Assembly (NCBI GenBank): GCA_963835535.1
Contig: CAWIFL010000013.1
Span: 3,046-67,045, forward strand
Source: an uncultured Gemmatimonadales bacterium
Lineage (GTDB): Bacteria > Gemmatimonadota > Gemmatimonadetes > Gemmatimonadales > JACORV01
Direction: 5' to 3'
DNA length: 64,000 nt
The notes under the pieces were generated by a model. The model ran no database searches, was not told the origin of the DNA, and saw nothing but the letters and a program-made list of their open reading frames with translations. How positions within the stretch are numbered: the stretch's first letter is position 1; every line of letters starts with the position of its first letter. Shown piece by piece: positions 18,400 to 45,942 of the stretch. Both the position numbers and the translations under genes were made by a program.

Positions 18400-19775
18400 G
18401 CTTCGCGCTCGCGGCGTTCGTCGCGTACTGCGGCTGCGCGTCCACCGGCGACCCGCCGGGCGGTCCTCCGCGCGCCACGCCGCCCGTCCTCCTCGCCAGC
18501 GTGCCCGAGTCCGGCGCCGTGCTCGCCGTGCCGCCGCGTCACGTCGAGCTGAGGTTCGACGAGGTCATCGGCGAGCGCATCGCCGCGCCGCAGCCCACCC
18601 TCGCGGGCGCGGTGCTCGTTTCGCCCGCCACGGGGCCCGTGAGCGTGGACTGGCACCGCAATCACATCACCATCTCGATCAAGGGCGGGTTCCGCCCGCA
18701 GCGCATCTACCGTGTGGAGCTGCTTCCCGTCGTCGTGGACCTCCACCAGAACAGGATGAAAAAGGCCCGGACCATCGTCTTCTCGACCGGCCCGGCGATC
18801 CCCTCGGCGACCCTCGCCGGCACCGTCGTGGACTGGACGGGTGGTCGCGCGGCGAACGGCGCGCTGGTCCAGGCCATGCTGCTGCCCGACTCCCTCCCCT
18901 ATCTCGCGCTGGCCGATTCGGTGGGGAATTTCTCCCTCCGCGCGATGCCGCCCGGCGACTACCTGGTGTACGGCGTCCTCGACCAGAACAACAACCGGCG
19001 CCGGGACCCGCGCGAGGCGTTCGACACCGCGCGCGTCGCGCTCACCGACTCGGCGCTGGTCGGGCTGTACGCGTTCACCCACGACACGATCGGGCCGCGG
19101 ATCAGGTCGGCGGATCCGGTGGACAGCATCACCGTGCGCATCACGTTCGACCGCCCCGTGAGTCCCGCCGTGGCCGTGGACACCTCGATGGTGCACGTGA
19201 GCCCGCTGGCCGATACGACGCAGACGGTCGCGCTGCTCACGGTGCTCACGACGGCCGCGTACGACAGCGCCGCCAAGATCGAAGCGGCCGCCAGGGCCGC
19301 CGCGCAGGCGGCGAGGGACAGCGCGACCCGGGCCGCGGCGGCGGCGCGCGACACCTCCCACCGCGCGGCCGCTCCACAGCCCGCGGCCGCGCGGCCGCCG
19401 GTCCGGCCACCGCCGCTGGGCGCGCTGCCGCGGCACGACTCGCTGCCCGCGGCGCGACACGACACCAGCCGCGCGACGAAGATGCTGGCCGAGCGCCCCG
19501 CCCCCAGCGACACGCGGGTCGTGCGCTTCGCCGCCCCGCTGGAGGCCGGCGTTCGATACGCGATCACGACCGCGAACGTGGTGGGGCTCACCGGAGTCAA
19601 GTCGACCCAGGGCCGCACCACCTTCACGGTGCCGCGGCCGCGGCCCACGCGGCCCGCCGCGGACTCCACGCGCCGTGCCCCGACCGACACCGCCGCCGCG
19701 GGCCGCGCGCAACCCGACACGGTCGCCGCGCGCCGCGACACCGTGCCGGCTCCCCTTCCGGTCAAACCACGGTGA
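18342..19775 (+). CDS. secreted/lipoprotein-like protein with Ig-like (SbsA/Big_5-like) N-domain and Ala/Pro-rich C-terminal half
   Basis: Tail of ORF 16236..19775(+). GTG 18342 is preceded by AAGGAG (18331-36, 5-nt spacer). The signal-like N-terminus is MDGQAGGARLQARRARLRVGFALAAFVAYCGC. The start overlaps the valS 3' end by 58 nt. Confidence 0.65.
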   Translation: MDGQAGGARLQARRARLRVGFALAAFVAYCGCASTGDPPGGPPRATPPVLLASVPESGAVLAVPPRHVELRFDEVIGERIAAPQPTLAGAVLVSPATGPVSVDWHRNHITISIKGGFRPQRIYRVELLPVVVDLHQNRMKKARTIVFSTGPAIPSATLAGTVVDWTGGRAANGALVQAMLLPDSLPYLALADSVGNFSLRAMPPGDYLVYGVLDQNNNRRRDPREAFDTARVALTDSALVGLYAFTHDTIGPRIRSADPVDSITVRITFDRPVSPAVAVDTSMVHVSPLADTTQTVALLTVLTTAAYDSAAKIEAAARAAAQAARDSATRAAAAARDTSHRAAAPQPAAARPPVRPPPLGALPRHDSLPAARHDTSRATKMLAERPAPSDTRVVRFAAPLEAGVRYAITTANVVGLTGVKSTQGRTTFTVPRPRPTRPAADSTRRAPTDTAAAGRAQPDTVAARRDTVPAPLPVKPR

Positions 19776-21187
19776 CCGACCCGCGCCGCCGGCTGCCGTC
19801 GGTGGACCGCCTGCTCAAGGAGAGCGCCGTCGCCCCCCTCGCCGCGGGCGTCCCGCGGAGCGCGCTCGTCCGCGCGGTGCGGAGCGCCTTGGGCGACGCG
19901 CGCGCGGCGCCGGAGAAAGCGCCCGCCGACGGCGCGGCCTGGGCCGCCGCCGTCCTCCGCGCGTTGGAGTCGGCGACGCGCCCGACGCTGCGCCGCGCGG
20001 TCAACGCCACGGGCGTGGTGTTGCACACCAACCTCGGTCGCGCCCCGTTGAGCGAGGCGGCGCTCGCCGCCGTCCGCGAGGCGGCGCGCGGCTACAGCAC
20101 GCTCGAGTACGACGCCGAACGCGGCCGGCGCGGCGACCGCCACGTGCACTGCGCCGGCCTGCTCACCGAGCTCACCGGCGCGCCGGCCGCGCTGATGGTG
20201 AACAACGCCGCCTCGGCGCTCCTCCTGGCCCTGGCGACCGCGGCGGCCGGCGGCGACGTGATCGTCTCGCGCGGCGAGCTGATCGAGATCGGCGGCGGGT
20301 TCCGGATCCCGGAGATCCTCGAGAAGAGCGGGGCGCGGCTCCTCGAGGTCGGCACGACCAACCGCACGAAGCTGGCCGACTACGAGAAAGCGCTCAAAGA
20401 CAGAGGCACAGAGGCACAGGGGCACAGGGGCACAGGCAAGCCAGCCGCGCGTCTGCCGGTCGCCATCCTCAAGGTCCATCGCTCGAACTTCCGGCAGGAG
20501 GGGTTCGTCGCCGAGGCGTCGCTGGAGGAGCTGGTGGCGCTCGGGCGGAAGCGCCGGGTGCCGGTGATCTACGACCTGGGCGGCGGACTGATGGTGGATC
20601 TCTCCGCCGACGGCCTCGACGGGGAGCCGCTGCTGCCGCGGGCCGCGAAGAGCGGCGCCACGGCCGTCGTCGCGTCGGGCGACAAGCTGCTGGGCGGCCC
20701 GCAGGCCGGCATCCTCCTCGGCACCGCGGCGTTCGTCGAGCGCTGCCGCACCAATCCGCTGGCGCGGGCGATCCGCGCCGACAAGCTCACGATCGCCGCC
20801 CTCTCGGCGACGCTGGCGCTCTACCGCGACACGGCCATGGCGCGGCGCGAGGTCCCGGTCCTGCGGATGCTGACGGAGCCGCGCTCGGTCCTGGTCGCGC
20901 GCGCCGAGCGCCTGGCCGCGACGCTGCCACCCGCGGCGCACGCCGTGGTGACGGCGACGCGCGCCGCGGTCGGCGGCGGGGCCTTCCCCGGCCTCGAGCT
21001 GGCCAGCGCCGGCGTCGCCCTCGCCCCGGAGGGGCTCTCCGCCGCGGGGCTGGCCGAGCGCCTCCGACTCGCCGCGACGCCGGTCGTCGCGCTGGTCACG
21101 GGCGGCCGCGTCGTCCTCGACGTGCGCACGATCGCGCCCGAGGACGAGCGGACGGTCGCAGACGCCGTCGCCGCGGCGCTTATCTAG
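19772..21187 (+). CDS. selA: L-seryl-tRNA(Sec) selenium transferase
   Basis: Tail of ORF 18155..21187(+) from VTDPRRRLPSVDRLL. Motifs: NATGVVLHTNLGRAPL, NNAASALLL, TTNRT, KVHRSNF, SGDKLLGGPQAG (PLP Lys). GTG 19772 overlaps the upstream stop (GTGA). Confidence 0.9.
   Translation: MTDPRRRLPSVDRLLKESAVAPLAAGVPRSALVRAVRSALGDARAAPEKAPADGAAWAAAVLRALESATRPTLRRAVNATGVVLHTNLGRAPLSEAALAAVREAARGYSTLEYDAERGRRGDRHVHCAGLLTELTGAPAALMVNNAASALLLALATAAAGGDVIVSRGELIEIGGGFRIPEILEKSGARLLEVGTTNRTKLADYEKALKDRGTEAQGHRGTGKPAARLPVAILKVHRSNFRQEGFVAEASLEELVALGRKRRVPVIYDLGGGLMVDLSADGLDGEPLLPRAAKSGATAVVASGDKLLGGPQAGILLGTAAFVERCRTNPLARAIRADKLTIAALSATLALYRDTAMARREVPVLRMLTEPRSVLVARAERLAATLPPAAHAVVTATRAAVGGGAFPGLELASAGVALAPEGLSAAGLAERLRLAATPVVALVTGGRVVLDVRTIAPEDERTVADAVAAALI
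20401..20438 (+). repeat. octanucleotide tandem array CAGAGGCA CAGAGGCA CAGGGGCA CAGGGGCA CAGGCA inside selA
   Basis: Read directly: 4.75 copies of an 8-nt unit, in frame, encoding ..DRGTEAQGHRGTGK... It is visibly more A-rich than the flanks. Confidence 0.9.
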
Positions 21188-23349: not shown

Positions 23350-24018
23350 ATGGGCATGCCTCCCCTGCAGGTCGCCGTGCTTGCTTCGGGCCACGGATCC
23401 AATCTCCAGGCCCTCCTCGACGCCTTTCAGGAGCCGGCCGCCCCCGCGCGCATCGCCCTCGTCGTCTCCAACAAGCCCGCCGCCGGGGCCCTCGAGCGCG
23501 CGCGGCACGCGGGGGTCGCCACCGCCACCATCCCCGAAGACGGCCGGGATGCGGACGCTCTCCTCGCCCTGCTCGCGCGCCACGACATCGCGCTCGTCGT
23601 CCTGGCGGGCTACCTGAAGCGGGTCCCCGACCGCGTCGTGGCGGCATATCGCGGGCGGATGCTGAACGTGCACCCGGCGCTCCTGCCCTGTTTCGGCGGC
23701 GCGGGGATGTACGGCCGGCGCGTCCACGAGGCGGTCCTGGCGAGCGGCGCCCGGATCACCGGCGTCACCGTGCACCTGGTGGACGAGCAGTACGACCACG
23801 GCCGGATCCTCGCCCAGTGGCCCGTCCCCGTCCACGCCGGCGACACCGCCGAAACGCTCGCCGCGCGCGTCCTCGAGGCCGAGCACCGGCTCCTCCCCGC
23901 CGTCGTGGGCGCGTTCGCGCGCTGCGGCGGCGAGCCCCGCTGCTTCCTGGCGGCCGACGCGCTCGGCCCCGCACCCTCACCGCAACCGGACTTCGCCGAT
24001 GCGCTCACGACCCTGTAG
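23350..24018 (+). CDS. purN: phosphoribosylglycinamide formyltransferase
   Basis: ORF 23320..24018(+). Motifs: VAVLASGHGSNLQAL, VVLAGYLKRV, MLNVHPALLP, HLVDEQYDHGRILAQ. ATG 23350 (MGMPPLQVAVL) is preferred over the track start. Confidence 0.9.
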   Translation: MGMPPLQVAVLASGHGSNLQALLDAFQEPAAPARIALVVSNKPAAGALERARHAGVATATIPEDGRDADALLALLARHDIALVVLAGYLKRVPDRVVAAYRGRMLNVHPALLPCFGGAGMYGRRVHEAVLASGARITGVTVHLVDEQYDHGRILAQWPVPVHAGDTAETLAARVLEAEHRLLPAVVGAFARCGGEPRCFLAADALGPAPSPQPDFADALTTL

Positions 24019-24997
24019 CGCGCTCGTGGCGCTGGCGTGCGCGCTGATCGCGACGCCGGCCGCCGCTCAGTCGCCCTCCGCCGGCCCGCCGCTCGATTCC
24101 CTGGTCGTCCGGCTCGCGAACATGAGTGCCGTCACCGGCCTCGAGGACGCGATGGCCGAGGAGCTCGCCGCGGCGCTGCCCGGCGCGGTGACGGACGCCG
24201 CCGGGAACGTGCTCGCGATCCGCGGCAGCGGCGACCCGACCCGGGTCGCGCTCTGCCCGATGGACGAGATCGGCTACGTGGTCGGCGCCGTCACGCCGGA
24301 GGGCTATCTGACCCTGCGCCGCGTGGGCGCGACCTTCATGGGCCCGCTGTACGACCAGTTCCTCGAGGGCCAGCGCGTCACCGTGTTCGGCAGCCGCGGC
24401 CCGCTCCCCGGCGTCGTGGGCGTGCGCTCGATCCACCTGACGCGCGGGCGCCCGTCCGCGGCCGACGAGCCGTTCAATCTCGACAACGCGTACGTGGACG
24501 TGGGCGCGACCTCGGCGGCGGGCGTCGAGGCCCTCGGCGTGGGCCTGCTCGCGCCGGTCACGCGCGCCAAGCGGGCACACCGCTACGGCACCGACCTCGT
24601 CGCCGCGCTCGACGTTTCGGCCCGCGCCTCCTGCGCCGCCCTGCTCGACGCGGTCCTGCGCCTCCCCGCGGGCGGCGGCCGCGGCACCGCCGTGGCCGCG
24701 TTCACGCGCCGGCGGAACCTCCGGTGGGACGGCGGCTCGTTCGTGGTGATCTCCCGCGCGCAGGGAGCGGCAGCCTCCGACGTCGTCCTGCTCGGCGAGA
24801 CCGCCGCGGCCGACTCCCTCGGTGCGGGCGCGGTCGTGACCGGGGGCGACTCGCTCCCCGCCGCGCAGGGCTTCCAGGCCGCGACCGCCTGGAGCCTGCC
24901 CACCCGCTACGCCCGCACGCCGGTCGAGACCGTGTCACTCAAGGACGTCGCGGTCCTCGCGGACAGGCTCGTGGCGTTCCTGGGAGGGCGGCCATGA
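23999..24997 (+). CDS. secreted M42-peptidase-like paralog, apparently catalytically degenerate
   Basis: ORF 23999..24997(+). Signal peptide: MRSRPCSALVALACALIATPAAAQ. The fold-level pattern resembles the next gene, but the metal-ligand boxes are altered (ALCPMDEIG instead of AH.DEIG; no EE box). Confidence 0.65.
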   Translation: MRSRPCSALVALACALIATPAAAQSPSAGPPLDSLVVRLANMSAVTGLEDAMAEELAAALPGAVTDAAGNVLAIRGSGDPTRVALCPMDEIGYVVGAVTPEGYLTLRRVGATFMGPLYDQFLEGQRVTVFGSRGPLPGVVGVRSIHLTRGRPSAADEPFNLDNAYVDVGATSAAGVEALGVGLLAPVTRAKRAHRYGTDLVAALDVSARASCAALLDAVLRLPAGGGRGTAVAAFTRRRNLRWDGGSFVVISRAQGAAASDVVLLGETAAADSLGAGAVVTGGDSLPAAQGFQAATAWSLPTRYARTPVETVSLKDVAVLADRLVAFLGGRP

Positions 24998-26121
24998 CGC
25001 ACGGACGCGCGGACGCACGGACGCACGGCGCGTGGGTGGCCGCCGCCGTCCTCGTGGCGTGCCTGACGCCCGGCGCGGCGCCCGCCCAGCAGCCGATCGG
25101 CCTCGGCGAGGCGCGCGACATCGTGTCGCGCCTGGTCGAGACCTACGGCGTCTCCGGCCACGAAGGCCCGGTGCGCGAGGCCGTCATCAAGCTCCTGCCG
25201 GCGTGGGCGAATCCGACCATCGATTCCGCGGGGAACATCCTGGTCCGTGCCGGCGCGGGCGACCCGCTCACCGTCTACGTCGCGCACCTCGACGAGATCG
25301 GCTTCGCCGTCACGGCGATCCGGGAGAACGGGCAGCTGGAGCTGAGGCAGCTGGGCGGGTTCTTCCCCTCCCTGTTCGAGGCGGAGCCGGCGCTCGTGCA
25401 CACGGCGAACGGGATCGTGCCGGCCGTCTTCATGCCGCGCGACAGCGTCGGCCGCTCACCCGCGCGGAACCCCGGCGCCCTGCGCGCCGATCCCGGCACG
25501 GGGAGCCGCGCCGCCACCGAAGCGCTGGGCATCAGGGTCGGCGACGCGGTGACGATGCCGAAGTCCTTCGCCGGCCTCGCGGGGACGCGCGCCACCGGGC
25601 GCTCGTTCGACGACCGGGTCGGCTCGACCGCGCTGCTCCTCGCCGTGCGGCACCTCGACCCGCGGCGGCTCCGGCACGCGGTGCTGTTCGTCTGGTCCAC
25701 CCGGGAGGAAGTGGGGCTCGACGGCGCCCGGTTCGTCGCGGAGCACGTGGGGACGTCCGAGCATCCGGCGCGCGTGTACGCCATCGACACCTTCGTCTCC
25801 TCCGACGCGCCGCTGGAGATCAAGACCTTCGCCGACGCGCCGCTGGGCGGCGGCGCCGTGGTCCGGGCGGTGGACAACAGCTCGGTGACGCCGCCCGCGC
25901 TGGTGGACTCGCTGCTGGCGCTGGCGCGCGCGCGGCACATCCCGCTGGTCGCGGGCACGACCAACGGCGGGAACGACGGCTCGACCTTCACGCGCTTCGG
26001 CGTGCCCGACGTGGGGCTCGGGTGGCCGCTGCGCTACGCCCATTCGCCGGCGGAAGTGATCGATCTCCGGGACCTGGTCTCGCTCGCCGACGTCATCCAA
26101 CTCACTGCGGAGCGATGGTAA
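24994..26121 (+). CDS. M42 family metallopeptidase (glutamyl aminopeptidase/endoglucanase-like) with signal peptide
   Basis: Tail of ORF 24037..26121(+) from MTHGRADARTHGAWVAAAVLVACL. Motifs: VAHLDEIGF, SFDDRVG, STREEVGLDGA, YAHSP. ATG 24994 overlaps the upstream stop (ATGA). Confidence 0.85.
   Translation: MTHGRADARTHGAWVAAAVLVACLTPGAAPAQQPIGLGEARDIVSRLVETYGVSGHEGPVREAVIKLLPAWANPTIDSAGNILVRAGAGDPLTVYVAHLDEIGFAVTAIRENGQLELRQLGGFFPSLFEAEPALVHTANGIVPAVFMPRDSVGRSPARNPGALRADPGTGSRAATEALGIRVGDAVTMPKSFAGLAGTRATGRSFDDRVGSTALLLAVRHLDPRRLRHAVLFVWSTREEVGLDGARFVAEHVGTSEHPARVYAIDTFVSSDAPLEIKTFADAPLGGGAVVRAVDNSSVTPPALVDSLLALARARHIPLVAGTTNGGNDGSTFTRFGVPDVGLGWPLRYAHSPAEVIDLRDLVSLADVIQLTAERW
24997..25028 (+). 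repeat. octanucleotide tandem array ACGCACGG ACGCGCGG ACGCACGG ACGCACGG at codons 2-12 of the M42 gene
   Basis: Read directly from the sequence. It encodes THGRADARTHG. The same unit occurs at 45857-45888 on the other strand. Confidence 0.9.
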
Positions 26122-29554: not shown

Positions 29555-29638
29555 GGAGGGGTAGACCTAACTGGTAAGGCAGCGGTCTTGAAAACCGCCG
29601 GGCGCAAGCCCTTGGGGGTTCGAATCCCCCTCCCTCCG
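29555..29638 (+). tRNA. tRNA-Ser (anticodon UGA)
   Basis: Hand-folded. Acceptor GGAGGGG/TCCCTCC plus discriminator G. Anticodon stem GCGGT/ACCGC with loop CTTGAAA (U33, UGA). Long variable arm (CGGGCGCAAGCCCTTG). T-arm GGGGG-TTCGAAT-CCCCC. No encoded CCA. The D-stem has one mismatch. Confidence 0.85.
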
Positions 29639-35571: not shown

Positions 35572-35662
35572 GGAGAGGTGGCCGAGAGGCTGAAGGCGGC
35601 GGTTTGCTAAACCGTTTAACGGGCTAATACCTGTTACGAGGGTTCGAATCCCTCCCTCTCCG
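35572..35662 (+). tRNA. tRNA-Ser (anticodon GCU)
   Basis: Hand-folded. Acceptor GGAGAGG/CCTCTCC plus G. D-arm GTGGCCGAGAGGCTGAAGGC. Anticodon stem GCGGT/ACCGT with loop TTGCTAA. Long variable arm. T-arm GAGGG-TTCGAAT-CCCTC. Confidence 0.9.
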
Positions 35663-41975: not shown

Positions 41976-41995
41976 CGGACGGCTCCTCAGGTGGA

Positions 41996-42153
41996 GGCGT
42001 GAGAGGTGAGACGTGAGAGGAACAAGTGAGAGGGTAAGATGCGTGAGAGGTGAGAAGGAGAGGCGTGAGAGGTCCCCTCTCACGCCCTTGCCCTCTCACG
42101 TCTCACGCCGTTCGCCCTCTCACTTCTCACCTGTCCCCCTCACTTCTCACGCC
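41996..42153. repeat. 158-nt imperfect palindrome built from GTGAGAGG (left arm) and CCTCTCAC (right arm) units
   Basis: GTGAGAGG is at 41999, 42013, 42026, 42043 and 42065. CCTCTCAC is at 42076, 42092 and 42116, plus shorter (T)TCTCAC/CCCTCAC copies out to 42150. The perfect central stem is GGCGTGAGAGG (42062-72), loop tcc, CCTCTCACGCC (42076-86). The outermost 10-11 nt are also complementary. Confidence 0.85.
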
Positions 42154-44653
42154 GTGAAGTTCGAAGAACTCCCTGATCTGCCTGATCAGTTCGTGCCACG
42201 GCCCCATGAACCTGCGTCGCGTCCGGCAGTCCCTCCAGGAGCGCGCCGCCGTACCGCTTCCGCAGCACCCGCGGGTCCAGCAGCACCACCACGCCGACGT
42301 CCGTCCGCGAGCGGATGAGCCGGCCGAAGCCCTGCTTGAGCTTCAGCGCGGCGAGCGGCACCAGGTACTCGTTGAACGGGTCGCCGCCGGACGCCTCGAT
42401 GGCCTCGCAGCGCGCGGCGGTGAGCGGCTCGGTCGGCACGCGGAACGGCAGCTTGGCGATCACCAGGGCGCGGAGCGCGAGCCCGGGCACGTCCACGCCT
42501 TCCCAGAACGAGTCCGTGCCCAGGAGGATGGCCGAGCCGGCGTCGCGGAAGCGGCGCAGCAGCTGGTCGCGCGGCGCGTCCCCCTGCACCAGCAGCGGCC
42601 AGCGGCCGGCGACGTCGGCGCGCGCGCCGAGCGCGGCGGCCGCCTGCCGCAGGGCGCGGTGGCTCGTGAAGAGGACGAACAGCCCGCCGTCGGAGGCGTG
42701 CGCGACGTCGGCCGCGATCTCGGCGACCCGCGCGCCGTGTCCCTCCGCGTCGTCCCGCGGCTCGGGCAGGTCGTCGGGCACGACGAACAGGCACTGGTCG
42801 CGGTAGTTGAAGGGCGACGGCAGCACCTCGCGCACCCCTTCGCGCGAGGGCGGCAGGTCGAGGCCGAGGCGCCGCGCGAGGAACTCGAAGGAGCCCCCGG
42901 TCGCCAGCGTCGCGCTGGTCAGGGTGATCGTCTCGACCCGGTCGAAGAGCATCTCCTTGAGGAGCGGCGCCAGCTCCAGCGGCACGGCGGCGAGCGCGAC
43001 GTGCGCGCCGCCGCGCCGCTCGATCCACCGCACCGTCGGGGGCAGGCCGGCCGGGGGCCGGAGCGTCGTGCGCACCGCGTCGCGCGCCGCCTCCAGACGG
43101 TTGGAGAGCCCGCGCAGCTCGCCCGCCAGCGACTGGATCCGGTCCGCCCCTTCCTCCGACCCCAGCCGCTCCACGAGGGCCACCACGGCCTCCCGGACCA
43201 GGCCGAGCGCGTAGCCGAAGTTGTCGAGCGCGTCGCCGAGCCCGCCGCCGGCGGCCGACCAGATGGGGTCGGCGGCGAACGCGTCGCCCAGGCGGACGAC
43301 GTTGTCGGCCTTGCCGGCCAGGTAGGCGTCGAGGATCCGGAAGAGCAGCTCGGCGCTGCGCCGCGCGTCCGCCAGCGCCGGGCGGAGGCGCGATTCGATC
43401 TGCTGCATGGCCGTCTCGCGCAGGGGCTCGTCCGCCTCGGCCGCGAGCGCGCCCCGCAGCGCCGGCAGGACGCCGCGGTTGCCACGCTCCAGCCGCGACA
43501 GCATCCGCTCCACGCCGCGCGACGTGGCCTGCATGCCGAGGTGCGTGGCGGCCGTGTCCTCCAGGTGGTGCGCCTCGTCGAGCACGAGGCGGCGATACGG
43601 CGGGAGCACCGCCGCCTCCTCGAAGTTCCCCTGGGCGCGCCGCACGGCGAGATCGCTCGCCAGGAGGTGGTGGTTCACCACCACCACGTCCGCGTCGGCG
43701 GCGCGGCGCCGCGCCTCGAAGACGAAGCACCCGTCGAAGTGCGGACAGCGCAGCCGGGTGCACAGGTCCGACTCGGCCGCGACCTCGTCCCACACCTCGG
43801 AGCTGGGCGTGAACGACAGGTCCGAGAGGCTGCCGTCCGACGTGTGCGCCGCCCACGACGCAATGGCTTCCAGCTCGTCGCGGCGGTCCGGCTCGAGGAG
43901 CGTGCCGACGCCCCGCCGCGCCTGCTCCAGTCGCGTCAGGCAGACGTAGTTGCGCCACCCCTTGAGCAGCGCGTAGCGCACCGGACGGTCCTCGGTGCCG
44001 AGGGCGCGGGCCAGCAGCGGGAGGTCCTTCCCGACCAGCTGCTCCTGCAGGTTGATGGTGTTCGTGGAGACGATGGTGCGCTCGCCGTTCACCACGGCCC
44101 ACCGGATCGCCGGCACGAGGTACGCGAAGCTCTTCCCGATCCCGGTCCCGGCCTCGAGCACCGCGATCGAGCCGTCGTTGTACGCGTCGGCGATGTAGGC
44201 CGCCATGTCGCGCTGGGCCTGGCGGTCCTCGTGCGCGCCCAGCTCGCGCGCCACGGGGCCCGCGGGCGCGAGGAGCCGCGCAACGGCGACGGCATCGAGC
44301 GGCTCGGTGCCGCGCGGCTTCGGCACCTCGACGACGACGTACAGCTCGTCGGCCCGGTTGTCCACGATCCCGAAGCCGATGCCGCCGTCGTGCAGGCGCA
44401 CCGCGACGTCGAGATCGGCGTTCGAGGGCTCGAGCAGCCCGCTCGGGTGGTTGTGGAGCACCATCTGCCCGCGGGACGCGACGCCCGGCAGGGCGAGCAC
44501 CGCGTCCACGGTACCGCGCGCGACGGGCTCCGCTCCCCGCACCGTGCCATCGGCGGCGACGTCGGCGACGAACGAAACCTCGCGGCCGCCGGCCTCCGCG
44601 ATCGCCGCGGCGATGGCGGAGCGGGCCGCGGCGCCGAGCCGCGCGGTGCTCAC
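42140..44653 (-). CDS. fusion protein: RadC-like JAB/MPN domain + DinG/Rad3-family ATP-dependent DNA helicase
   Basis: Tail of ORF 42140..44950(-) from VSTARLGAAARSAI. JAB motif: MVLHNHPSGLLEPSNADLDV. Helicase motifs: LEAGTGIGKS (Walker A), VLDEAHHL (DEAH), LTSATL, GTDSFWEGVD, QGFGRLIRS. GTG 44653 overlaps the upstream stop (GTGA). The last ~22 codons look frameshifted; the alternative end is 42127. Confidence 0.85.
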   Translation of the reverse strand: MSTARLGAAARSAIAAAIAEAGGREVSFVADVAADGTVRGAEPVARGTVDAVLALPGVASRGQMVLHNHPSGLLEPSNADLDVAVRLHDGGIGFGIVDNRADELYVVVEVPKPRGTEPLDAVAVARLLAPAGPVARELGAHEDRQAQRDMAAYIADAYNDGSIAVLEAGTGIGKSFAYLVPAIRWAVVNGERTIVSTNTINLQEQLVGKDLPLLARALGTEDRPVRYALLKGWRNYVCLTRLEQARRGVGTLLEPDRRDELEAIASWAAHTSDGSLSDLSFTPSSEVWDEVAAESDLCTRLRCPHFDGCFVFEARRRAADADVVVVNHHLLASDLAVRRAQGNFEEAAVLPPYRRLVLDEAHHLEDTAATHLGMQATSRGVERMLSRLERGNRGVLPALRGALAAEADEPLRETAMQQIESRLRPALADARRSAELLFRILDAYLAGKADNVVRLGDAFAADPIWSAAGGGLGDALDNFGYALGLVREAVVALVERLGSEEGADRIQSLAGELRGLSNRLEAARDAVRTTLRPPAGLPPTVRWIERRGGAHVALAAVPLELAPLLKEMLFDRVETITLTSATLATGGSFEFLARRLGLDLPPSREGVREVLPSPFNYRDQCLFVVPDDLPEPRDDAEGHGARVAEIAADVAHASDGGLFVLFTSHRALRQAAAALGARADVAGRWPLLVQGDAPRDQLLRRFRDAGSAILLGTDSFWEGVDVPGLALRALVIAKLPFRVPTEPLTAARCEAIEASGGDPFNEYLVPLAALKLKQGFGRLIRSRTDVGVVVLLDPRVLRKRYGGALLEGLPDATQVHGAVARTDQADQGVLRTSRREK

Positions 44654-45942
44654 GTCTTGAGTTCGCGCTTGCGCGCCGCGGGGAAGAGCACGTTGTTGAG
44701 AATGAGCCGGTAGCCCGGCGATGTCGGATGCAGCGACAGGTCGGTCGGCGGACTCCCGACCTGGTGCTGCGGGTCCTCGGGGTCGTGGCCGCCCAGGTAG
44801 GTCCAGGTCCCGCGGCCCAGGTCGCCGTGGATGTACTTCACCCACGGCGCGCCCGCCTCGTCGGCCAGGACGATGTCGGCGGCCTTGAGGGTGCGGCGCG
44901 TGAAGCTCGTGGTGATGCCGTAGAAGTCCGGGATCACCTGCCGGTGACACTGCACCAGCATCGTCGGCACGGGATCAATCTTGGCGCTGAAGTTGAACAG
45001 CGCGAACGCGCCGAGCGGCTGGCGCAGCCCCGGGTTGTTGACCTGGTGCCCGTCGATGTCCGAGAAGGCCGGGATCGCCGGGTTCTTCTCGAGGTGCGCG
45101 TCCTTGCACGCCAGCGCCTGGGTCCAGTCGAGCTTGGCGTCGGCGTCGGGATCCATCGGCGTGCCGTCGGCGAACTCCGCGGCGATGTCCACGTCGTGCG
45201 CGGCCAGGGCCAGCTCCAGGGTCTCGGTCGCCGTGCACATCGCGAACAGGAAGCCGCCGCCGTCCACGAAGGCGCGGATGCGGCGGGCCACCGCCTTCTT
45301 CAGGGCGGGCACGTCGTCGAACGAGAGGGTGCGCGCCACCGCCTGGTTCTCCTGCACCATGTCGGCGAGCCAGGCCGCGCCGGCGTAGGAGAGGTAGAAC
45401 TTGGAGTACTGGCCGGTGAAGTCCTCGTGGTGCAGATGCAGCCAGTCGAAGTCGGCCAGCCGCCCGCCCAGGACTTCGGTGTCCCAGACGCGCGTGAAGG
45501 GGATGTCGGCGTAGCGGAGCGCGAGCGTCACCGCGTCGTCCCAGGGCGGAGCGAAGGGCGGCGAGTAGATGGCGACGCGCGGCGCCTTCTCGAGCGGCAC
45601 GGCGTCCATGTTGCCCTGCTCGATGGTGCCCCGGATGTCGAGCACGTCGGCGTCCGACACGCTCAGGGCGGCGACGCCCGCCAGCGTGGCGGCGCGCCGC
45701 GCGATCCCGTCGTCCGGGATGAGGAACGACCCCCCGCGATAGTTGAGCAGCCACTCGGTGTGGCCGCCGCGCTTGACGGCGTCGTACGCGAGGCCGTAGG
45801 CCTTGAGGTGGTTGGTCTGCTCCTCGTCCATCGGCACGAGCAGGGACGCCGCACCTCCGTGCGTCCGTGCGTCCGTGCGTCGGTGCGTCCAGGCGAGGGC
45901 GCCCGCGCCGGCCATCGCGCCGAGGAAGTCCCGCCGCTTCAC
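44650..45942 (-). CDS. Tat-signal secreted protein of unknown function (GATase1-like fold suspected)
   Basis: Tail of ORF 44650..46989(-) from VKRRDFLGAMAGAGALAW (RRxFL twin-arginine motif). The conserved-looking body includes EEQTNHLKAYGLAYD..WLLNYRGGSF..GGFLFAMC. GTG 45942 overlaps the TPR gene stop (GTGA). The fold assignment is a recollection, not a search result. Confidence 0.65.
   Translation of the reverse strand: MKRRDFLGAMAGAGALAWTHRRTDARTHGGAASLLVPMDEEQTNHLKAYGLAYDAVKRGGHTEWLLNYRGGSFLIPDDGIARRAATLAGVAALSVSDADVLDIRGTIEQGNMDAVPLEKAPRVAIYSPPFAPPWDDAVTLALRYADIPFTRVWDTEVLGGRLADFDWLHLHHEDFTGQYSKFYLSYAGAAWLADMVQENQAVARTLSFDDVPALKKAVARRIRAFVDGGGFLFAMCTATETLELALAAHDVDIAAEFADGTPMDPDADAKLDWTQALACKDAHLEKNPAIPAFSDIDGHQVNNPGLRQPLGAFALFNFSAKIDPVPTMLVQCHRQVIPDFYGITTSFTRRTLKAADIVLADEAGAPWVKYIHGDLGRGTWTYLGGHDPEDPQHQVGSPPTDLSLHPTSPGYRLILNNVLFPAARKRELKT
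45857..45888 (-). repeat. octanucleotide tandem array; minus strand reads ACGCACCG ACGCACGG ACGCACGG ACGCACGG just after the Tat signal
   Basis: The plus strand reads CCGTGCGT CCGTGCGT CCGTGCGT CGGTGCGT. It encodes ..THRRTDARTHGG.. in the same phase as the array at 24997-25028. Confidence 0.9.

Follow-up and report, generated by a model that had tools for sequence, protein, structure and literature searches.

How can a tandem repeat whose unit length is not a multiple of three lie directly behind the start codon of a protein gene, and does it act there as a genetic switch? This question is raised by a stretch of 64,000 nucleotides (nt), hereafter called the window, from contig CAWIFL010000013.1 of an uncultured Gemmatimonadales bacterium (assembly GCA_963835535.1; G+C content, 73%), in which the gene for a 375-residue M42-family aminopeptidase (24994-26121, + strand; Pfam PF05343, E = 1.9e-55) begins with four copies of an octanucleotide (array 1; 24997-25028, + strand). 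The initial annotation, made from the letters of the window, had read this arrangement as a contingency locus, switched off by slipped-strand mispairing, and had offered as a fallback that the array is the footprint of a small insertional repeat tolerating this reading phase. The results described below suggest that array 1 is probably an octanucleotide microsatellite, inherited and kept in frame, and belongs to a population of period-8 arrays of about four units that is typical of the Gemmatimonadales. The fallback has proved essentially right, the arrays forming a dispersed family of which the copy in selA is an insertion relative to outgroups, and the switch has not been borne out.

The presence of a four-copy octamer directly after ATG 24994 is confirmed by the sequence, its translation, Tandem Repeats Finder and comparison with shuffled sequences, the second unit deviating from the others: array 1 reads ACGCACGG ACGCGCGG ACGCACGG ACGCACGG, followed by C at 25029, and makes up codons 2-12 of the M42 gene (peptide THGRADARTHG). 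Array 1 together with the G of the ATG (or with the next C) measures 33 nt, that is, exactly 11 codons, and the reading frame runs through it into the M42 domain, as befits an in-frame coding repeat. The start codon (24994-24996, + strand) shares ATGA with the TGA stop codon (24995-24997) of the upstream gene, and this overlap is kept, with the same type of array, at the related loci L073, L119, L122 and L124. On this ground a start at GTG 25036, which would leave array 1 intergenic, was rejected; it is also ruled out by array-free orthologues, which begin at the same place with MK or MR. The translated N-terminus, MTHGRADARTHG-AWVAAAVLVA-CLTPGAAPA|QQ (that is, MTHGRADARTHG followed by AWVAAAVLVACLTPGAAPA|QQ), is a predicted Sec signal peptide of 31 residues (24994-25086, + strand), read by eye as an n-region from array 1 with two Arg residues, an h-region AWVAAAVLVA, and a c-region ending in APA|QQ. 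A lipoprotein reading of 'LVAC' was dropped, because the Cys varies among the orthologues while A-x-A|QQ is conserved. We infer that array 1 has been co-opted into the M42 signal peptide, where it now acts as the n-region and provides the two arginines. Many M42 orthologues have a short MK or MR n-region without an array, which may be the ancestral state.

Array 1 is orthologous, and its copy number is kept, across alleles and sister species. All 11 distinct full-length alleles in the 90% identity cluster of the M42 protein are 375 residues long, start with MTHGRADARTHG and share the interrupted second unit; in every allele the tract is of four units with ACGCGCGG as the second, so that only two adjacent units are perfect. 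The identical protein P0002 is indexed in 29 collection blocks, and 24 contigs were read. At the DNA level, the array of L119 is identical to that of the window, and a locus from one strain (L207) has four units with one synonymous G>A inside the array. Four units are also found at the M42 site in the sister species represented by L073/L122 (91% protein identity, perfect units), L120 (91%) and L124 (85%). The nucleotide periodicity itself is therefore kept in these orthologues, and heterogeneity of copy number in related genomes, which had been proposed as a sign of switching, was not found among the alleles and sister species examined. Likewise, no frameshifted (OFF) M42 allele was found among close relatives in about 15 independently read DNA loci. 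Three short homologues considered as OFF alleles (P0243, 361 residues; P0124 and P0138, 393 residues) were rejected, their DNA being in frame to the same start and their short calls being artefacts of contig edges and start-codon choice.

The octamer arrays are real and above chance. A two-unit probe with at most two mismatches matched the window 8 times, whereas 100 dinucleotide shuffles averaged 0.46 matches and never gave as many as 8. Tandem Repeats Finder reported array 1 and a second array at period 8, with 4.1 and 4.4 copies, respectively, and 92% matches, and listed a third array as well; a scan of the window by period (threshold, 3.5 units) picked up three arrays with period 8 and none with period 7 or 9-12. 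Since 8 and 3 have no common factor, (ACGCACGG)n is translated into one cyclic octapeptide, THGRTDAR, whichever sense frame is read, and a stop codon is absent from all six frames. For this reason, the shared reading phase of arrays 1 and 2, to which attention had been drawn earlier, is weak evidence and carries little weight.

Array 2 (45857-45888, - strand) lies in the gene of a 430-residue protein with a twin-arginine (Tat) signal (VKRRDFLG...; 44650-45942, - strand), whose GTG start overlaps the stop codon of the upstream gene as GTGA. As first described, this array has four copies on the opposite strand; it is near-identical to array 1, its first unit being ACGCACCG, followed by three of ACGCACGG (codons 19-29 or 19-30; peptide THRRTDARTHG). 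The protein starts with VKRRDFLGAMAGAGALAW-THRRTDARTHGG-AASLLVPMD, array 2 following the twin-arginine motif and the hydrophobic core; it is thus outside the n-region, and is not 5'-proximal in the sense in which array 1 is. Searches of Pfam and NCBIfam with the 430-residue protein gave no match; of the full-length homologues listed, nearly all have the RR-x-F-L motif, and in the orthologues the corresponding junction is hypervariable, with related array peptides, whereas the mature part is conserved. In the cluster of this gene (hereafter gene 2), six full-length alleles are all 430 residues long and have the same array peptide.

The third array, overlooked in the initial annotation, is located in a cytoplasmic enzyme, L-seryl-tRNA(Sec) selenium transferase (SelA; 19775-21187, + strand; NCBIfam TIGR00474, 494 bits against a cut-off of 268, residues 5-465). 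Array 3 (20400-20436, + strand) consists of two units of ACAGAGGC, two of ACAGGGGC and a terminal ACAGG, is in frame in selA, and forms part of a 17-residue loop insertion; the TIGR00474 alignment crosses it with the frame intact. The insertion is common to the window, L120 and L124, in which its length is kept and its octamer content is very different, and it is absent from 14 distinct SelA loop sequences of outgroups (more distant Gemmatimonadota), which read YExAxTxRTRLLLKVH at the insertion site. As judged from these alignments, the SelA array is demonstrably an insertion relative to the outgroups.

Further arrays, for which it had been proposed to look, were found both in the window and in other Gemmatimonadota. 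A genome scan with one genome per species and the probe CGGACGCACGGACGCACGG gave at least 114 loci, 18 of those listed being from Gemmatimonadota. Among the matches listed, ACGCACGG arrays occupy open reading frames (ORFs) in Gemmatimonadota and almost never in other phyla: at least 10 of the 18 Gemmatimonadota arrays are inside ORFs and in frame, as counted by an ORF classifier, which misses gene-start arrays such as L073, together with inspection by eye, whereas 87 of the 91 arrays of other phyla are outside any ORF. The in-frame sites include, within the same listed set, the signal-peptide n-region of L002, the M42 orthologue L073, CinA, the tail of UvrB, a linker of DnaG, LipB, the juxtamembrane segment of a Ser/Thr kinase and, in a hairpin form, DnaE, and all of the solo coding ACGCACGG arrays read THGRTDAR, never PCVRASVR. 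With SelA, CinA, LipB, DnaG, UvrB and DnaE among their hosts, the arrays are not limited to genes for surface, host-interaction or restriction-modification functions. There are three copies in the 64-kb window and, among the matches listed, at least three in one metagenome-assembled genome (MAG; L002, L110 and L112), and the 18 loci listed comprise both genic and intergenic arrays. Different unit types coexist in one genome, namely ACGCACGG and ACAGRGGC in the window, and ACGCACGG in CinA and AGGCACGG in gene 2 in MAG SPRUCE 616; the idea that a species-specific unit 'rewrites' all arrays is weakened by this coexistence.

The matches listed from outside the Gemmatimonadota belong mostly to Streptomyces, Nocardia, Kitasatospora, Frankia and further bacteria of high G+C content, the longest arrays having about 45 units. 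Long octamer arrays (8-45 units) stand between genes in Nocardia (L009, L020, L051, L055, L061 and L099) and in Streptomyces/Kitasatospora (L011, L033 and L038). The long arrays of Actinomycetota, e.g., (CCACACGG)n grading into (ACGCACGG)n, are often situated just past stop codons, and the unit recurs across this phylum. A viral contig (IMGVR_UViG_638275692_000001; L214, 1-460, and L218, 6050-6426) contains a 61-nt higher-order tandem repeat with three to four ACGCACGG units per copy, one copy of which is 53 nt long, exactly one unit less, a direct trace of single-unit slippage. A viral origin of the arrays was considered and set aside, only 8 viral contigs having the probe and none being informative. 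Finally, kilobase-scale ACGA/ACGG tetramer satellites grading into ACGCACGG octamers occur in a low-GC bin (L019, L107, L113 and L114; MAG labelled Metamycoplasmataceae, CBDHHR01), where they probably represent host or eukaryotic contamination of the MAG.

In relatives of the window species, the M42 site shows both turnover of the units and array hairpins. The four units of L120 are AGGCACGG, AGGCACGG, GGGCACAG and AGGCACGG in place of ACGCACGG, while the next 21 residues align without a gap; four parallel changes imply homogenisation, by cycles of slippage or by conversion. In L123 (2573-2680), five units are followed by an inverted array, together forming a hairpin (folding z = -3.04 relative to shuffles). 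L208 (1180-1330) belongs to the 90% cluster of L124 and has identical upstream DNA, and yet in place of the whole signal-peptide region it has GGGCACGG-type units, then a loop, then inverted CTGTGCCG-type units. The product is MRRGHATAPCRRARGHGGTAARKRPRAGWALAVPLCLCAAVPASLRA|QQ, with a charged n-region from the sense array and a hydrophobic core from the inverted one. An octamer array and its inverted copy also make up the signal-peptide region upstream of the annotated start in L200 and L202. In orthologues at 60-65% identity, other octamers (GGCGGACG, GTCGGACG and GGTTGGAA) stand right behind the start codon, often with a complementary array (GTCCGCC) about 60 nt downstream that codes for the c-region LSAxPSVRLSA|Q (z = -2.98 in L176). 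Comparable structures were seen at other sites: a hairpin of ACGCACGG units, loop and inverted units lies in frame in a DnaE-like ORF of 1016 codons (L085, 1276-1380), with a second inverted pair, (GACGCAAG)n/(CTTGCGTC)n, 2.3 kb off (L085, 3571-3644), and an intergenic segment of the window (41989-42152) has about ten units of (GTGAGAG)n facing (CTCTCAC)n, with 40-nt arms that are 78-85% complementary. This heptamer pair looks like a counterpart of the array hairpins of the relatives.

Taken as an inherited microsatellite of a Gemmatimonadales-typical population, array 1 may be accounted for as follows. The arrays would originate by slippage, and probably also by copying between arrays; they would later change through point mutation and occasional re-homogenisation; and those within genes would persist only if their total length keeps the frame and their peptide is harmless or of use, that is, under selection on frame and peptide. 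When the A-containing strand is read, the product is the hydrophilic, Arg-rich cyclic THGRTDAR, which appears to be tolerated in signal-peptide n-regions, signal/mature junctions, surface loops, linkers and C-terminal tails, and the arrays in the Tat-signal gene and in SelA may simply be filler. A rule of 1+3k units for in-frame arrays fits many of them (4.1-4.6 and 7.25 units) and fails for L123 (5 units) and L110 (about 6), and is thus a tendency. The preference for the period was also seen in a census of about 500 kb of Gemmatimonadota DNA, obtained via M42 or gene-2 homology, in which, at a threshold of at least 3.5 units, 33 arrays were found at period 8 (none in shuffles), 5 at period 7, 6 at period 9 and none at periods 10-15.

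Several points weigh against this account. As many as 25 of the 33 census arrays, array 1 included, come from the two tandem M42 paralogues, where they lie in the regions encoding the signal peptides; every census locus was chosen to contain these paralogues, and many of the hot-spot arrays are inherited within clades. Outside this hot spot the density is about one array per 100 kb, the window holding two more in its 64 kb, and the designation 'lineage-wide' therefore depends mainly on the 18 genome-scan loci and the window. All sequences are assembled consensus, in which minority length variants in the reads are invisible, and the failure to find an OFF allele rests on the 15 or so DNA loci, because look-ups by protein identity cannot return frameshifted alleles. 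As the concerted change of the four units in L120 shows, the M42 site does undergo slippage or conversion, and a signal peptide rebuilt at an identity of at least 90% (L208 versus L124) means that the site is evolutionarily unstable, an aspect underplayed when the arrays are viewed as neutral filler. The account also gives no reason for the period of 8 or for the use of these particular units.

The observations on the hairpins bring up another possibility, tentative and on balance unlikely, that in the Gemmatimonadales octanucleotide arrays and array hairpins form a self-homogenising family, by which export signals are repeatedly built or rebuilt. An array read on its A-containing strand would yield a positively charged n-region such as RGHGGTAARKRPR, and an inverted copy in the same frame a hydrophobic stretch such as AVPLCLCAAVPA; therefore, one hairpin inserted behind a start codon could encode a whole signal peptide. 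If this were so, the parallel unit types at unlinked loci would hint at active copying between arrays.

Copying is the essence of a further proposal, for which the chances seem rather small: that the arrays and hairpins are an actively propagated insertional element, copied from other arrays through template switching, ectopic conversion or an unknown enzyme, and not born by local slippage. Consistent with it, ACGCACGG occurs at unrelated loci of the window 21 kb apart and, in other Gemmatimonadota, in many genes that are unrelated to one another, SelA and DnaE carry block-like insertions, and the closest analogue, the four-heptanucleotide elements of Geobacter metallireducens, is found at 49 inter- and intragenic sites (PMC2700814). 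Unit types also vary together between loci, the M42 and gene-2 arrays being both ACGCACGG in the window species and, in L120 and L200/L206, which are relatives from peat bog (the loci possibly being from different species), both of the AGGCACGG type, and the SelA and M42 arrays of L124 being both of the GACGCAYG type; however, this co-variation rests on only two or three species, and the proposal is countered by the differing unit types within one genome in the window and in MAG SPRUCE 616. Moreover, neither a target-site duplication nor a terminal signature nor an associated gene was seen, and the octamer is also present in Streptomyces and Nocardia, which speaks for a preference in composition or mutation rather than for one mobile family.

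It is improbable that the arrays are functional nucleic-acid elements, acting as a protein-binding site or as a hairpin arm by which translation initiation, the targeting of mRNA or termination would be regulated where the two M42 genes meet. The relatives do pair the array with an inverted copy 10-60 nt downstream, with folding that beats shuffles in L123 and L176 and with more such pairs in L208, L200, L202 and L085 (intergenic or within DnaE), and the window has its intergenic inverted heptamer array. However, no inverted partner of any of the three window arrays was found in the window, and their RNA folding is no better than that of shuffles (z = 0.12, -0.11 and 1.33), so that this explanation fits the hairpins of the relatives, not the window. 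An Rfam scan of the window likewise revealed no family at the arrays, and only two tRNA genes (29555-29638 and 35572-35662). Furthermore, the units at this one site vary freely between species (ACGCACGG, AGGCACGG, GGCGGACG, GTCGGACG and GGTTGGAA), which fits poorly with a single sequence-specific binding protein.

The weakest explanation is the contingency locus, in which gain or loss of one 8-nt unit would act as a reversible on/off switch for the M42 peptidase and for the Tat-signal protein: although the unit length is not divisible by three, the array is 5'-proximal (codons 2-12) in an exported-protein gene, the L120 tract has evidently slipped or converted, and the viral repeat copies differ by exactly one ACGCACGG unit, such switching is highly improbable in view of the constant length in 11 M42 and 6 gene-2 alleles, the four units in three sister species, the lack of a frameshifted locus among the DNA loci read, the interruption by ACGCGCGG that leaves only two adjacent perfect units, the 8-38 strain-variable units of hepta- and octanucleotide tracts in Haemophilus influenzae (PMC2651432), and the occurrence of arrays of the same kind in SelA, LipB, DnaG and DnaE, for which being switched off would be harmful. 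Most likely, then, there is no switching at a rate that matters biologically, and the contingency-locus claim should be dropped.

The gene directly upstream of the M42 gene is its tandem paralogue (23999-24997, + strand; 332 residues; PF05343, E = 8e-23, profile positions 1-216 of 292), which has a signal peptide of its own. The synteny of the two tandem M42 genes is conserved, the homologues of the M42 product come from Gemmatimonadales MAGs (a look-up for exactly the same protein gave no match), and in NCBIfam the product scores under the cut-offs of the aminopeptidase models. Peptidases of the M42/TET type are usually cytoplasmic; both of the tandem M42-family genes (23999-26121) encode signal peptides.

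The inheritance of array 1 as an in-frame member of a Gemmatimonadales-typical population bears on annotation, in that an octamer array is no reason to score a gene as phase-variable or as at risk of a frameshift, and it explains the odd, hypervariable predicted N-termini of many Gemmatimonadales proteins. The lineage routinely carries a non-triplet microsatellite in frame, even in DnaE, DnaG and SelA, and export signals can be supplied or replaced by repeat DNA. It thereby provides a concrete system in which to ask how low-complexity DNA becomes a functional peptide and what sets the preference for period 8 in high-GC bacteria. In narrow literature text searches, no published account of octamer arrays in Gemmatimonadota or of signal peptides built from repeats was found.

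The arrays are worth comparing with other dispersed or tandem repeats of bacteria. Rickettsia palindromic elements (RPEs) are palindromes of 100-150 bp of unique sequence that lie in frame in protein genes, essential ones included. They resemble the present arrays in being dispersed in-frame repeats tolerated as surface loops, and the array hairpins of the relatives (DnaE, M42 and gene 2) come closest to them; however, RPEs are not tandem octamers, and the window arrays are solo, without an inverted arm. Heptanucleotide repeats termed STRR were reportedly described in cyanobacteria by Mazel and colleagues in 1990, and long simple sequence repeats (SSRs) with motifs of 5-11 nt in free-living bacteria by Mrazek and colleagues in 2007. 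These are said to share a lineage-specific excess of 7-8 nt tandem arrays untied to phase variation, and to differ in being mainly intergenic, whereas the Gemmatimonadota arrays are often translated in frame; like the RPEs, the STRRs are a looser parallel than the Geobacter elements, and the comparison serves as a lead only.

SSR contingency loci are likewise made of tandem non-triplet units, at or close to the 5' end of exported-protein genes. In the hepta- and octanucleotide tracts of H. influenzae (hmw and other loci), however, uninterrupted runs of 8-38 units vary in number between strains and give frameshifted alleles (PMC2651432), whereas the arrays described here have four units, one of them interrupted, show no length polymorphism, and have copies in housekeeping genes too. 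The elements designated Gmet_H4## in Geobacter metallireducens consist of four tandem heptanucleotides (GGGACCG/GGACCGG) at 49 sites, inside and between genes (Aklujkar et al. 2009, PMC2700814); they were proposed to act as regulatory RNA, with no test of that role and no signal-peptide link or reading-frame analysis reported. The Geobacter unit is of 7 nt and from another phylum, while the present ones (ACGCACGG and ACAGGGGC) are of 8 nt and have no sequence homology to it, so that the relation is one of analogy only; within that limit, both are GC-rich and consist of about four tandem copies of a unit of 7-8 nt, and they may also have in common a multi-copy distribution over inter- as well as intragenic sites.

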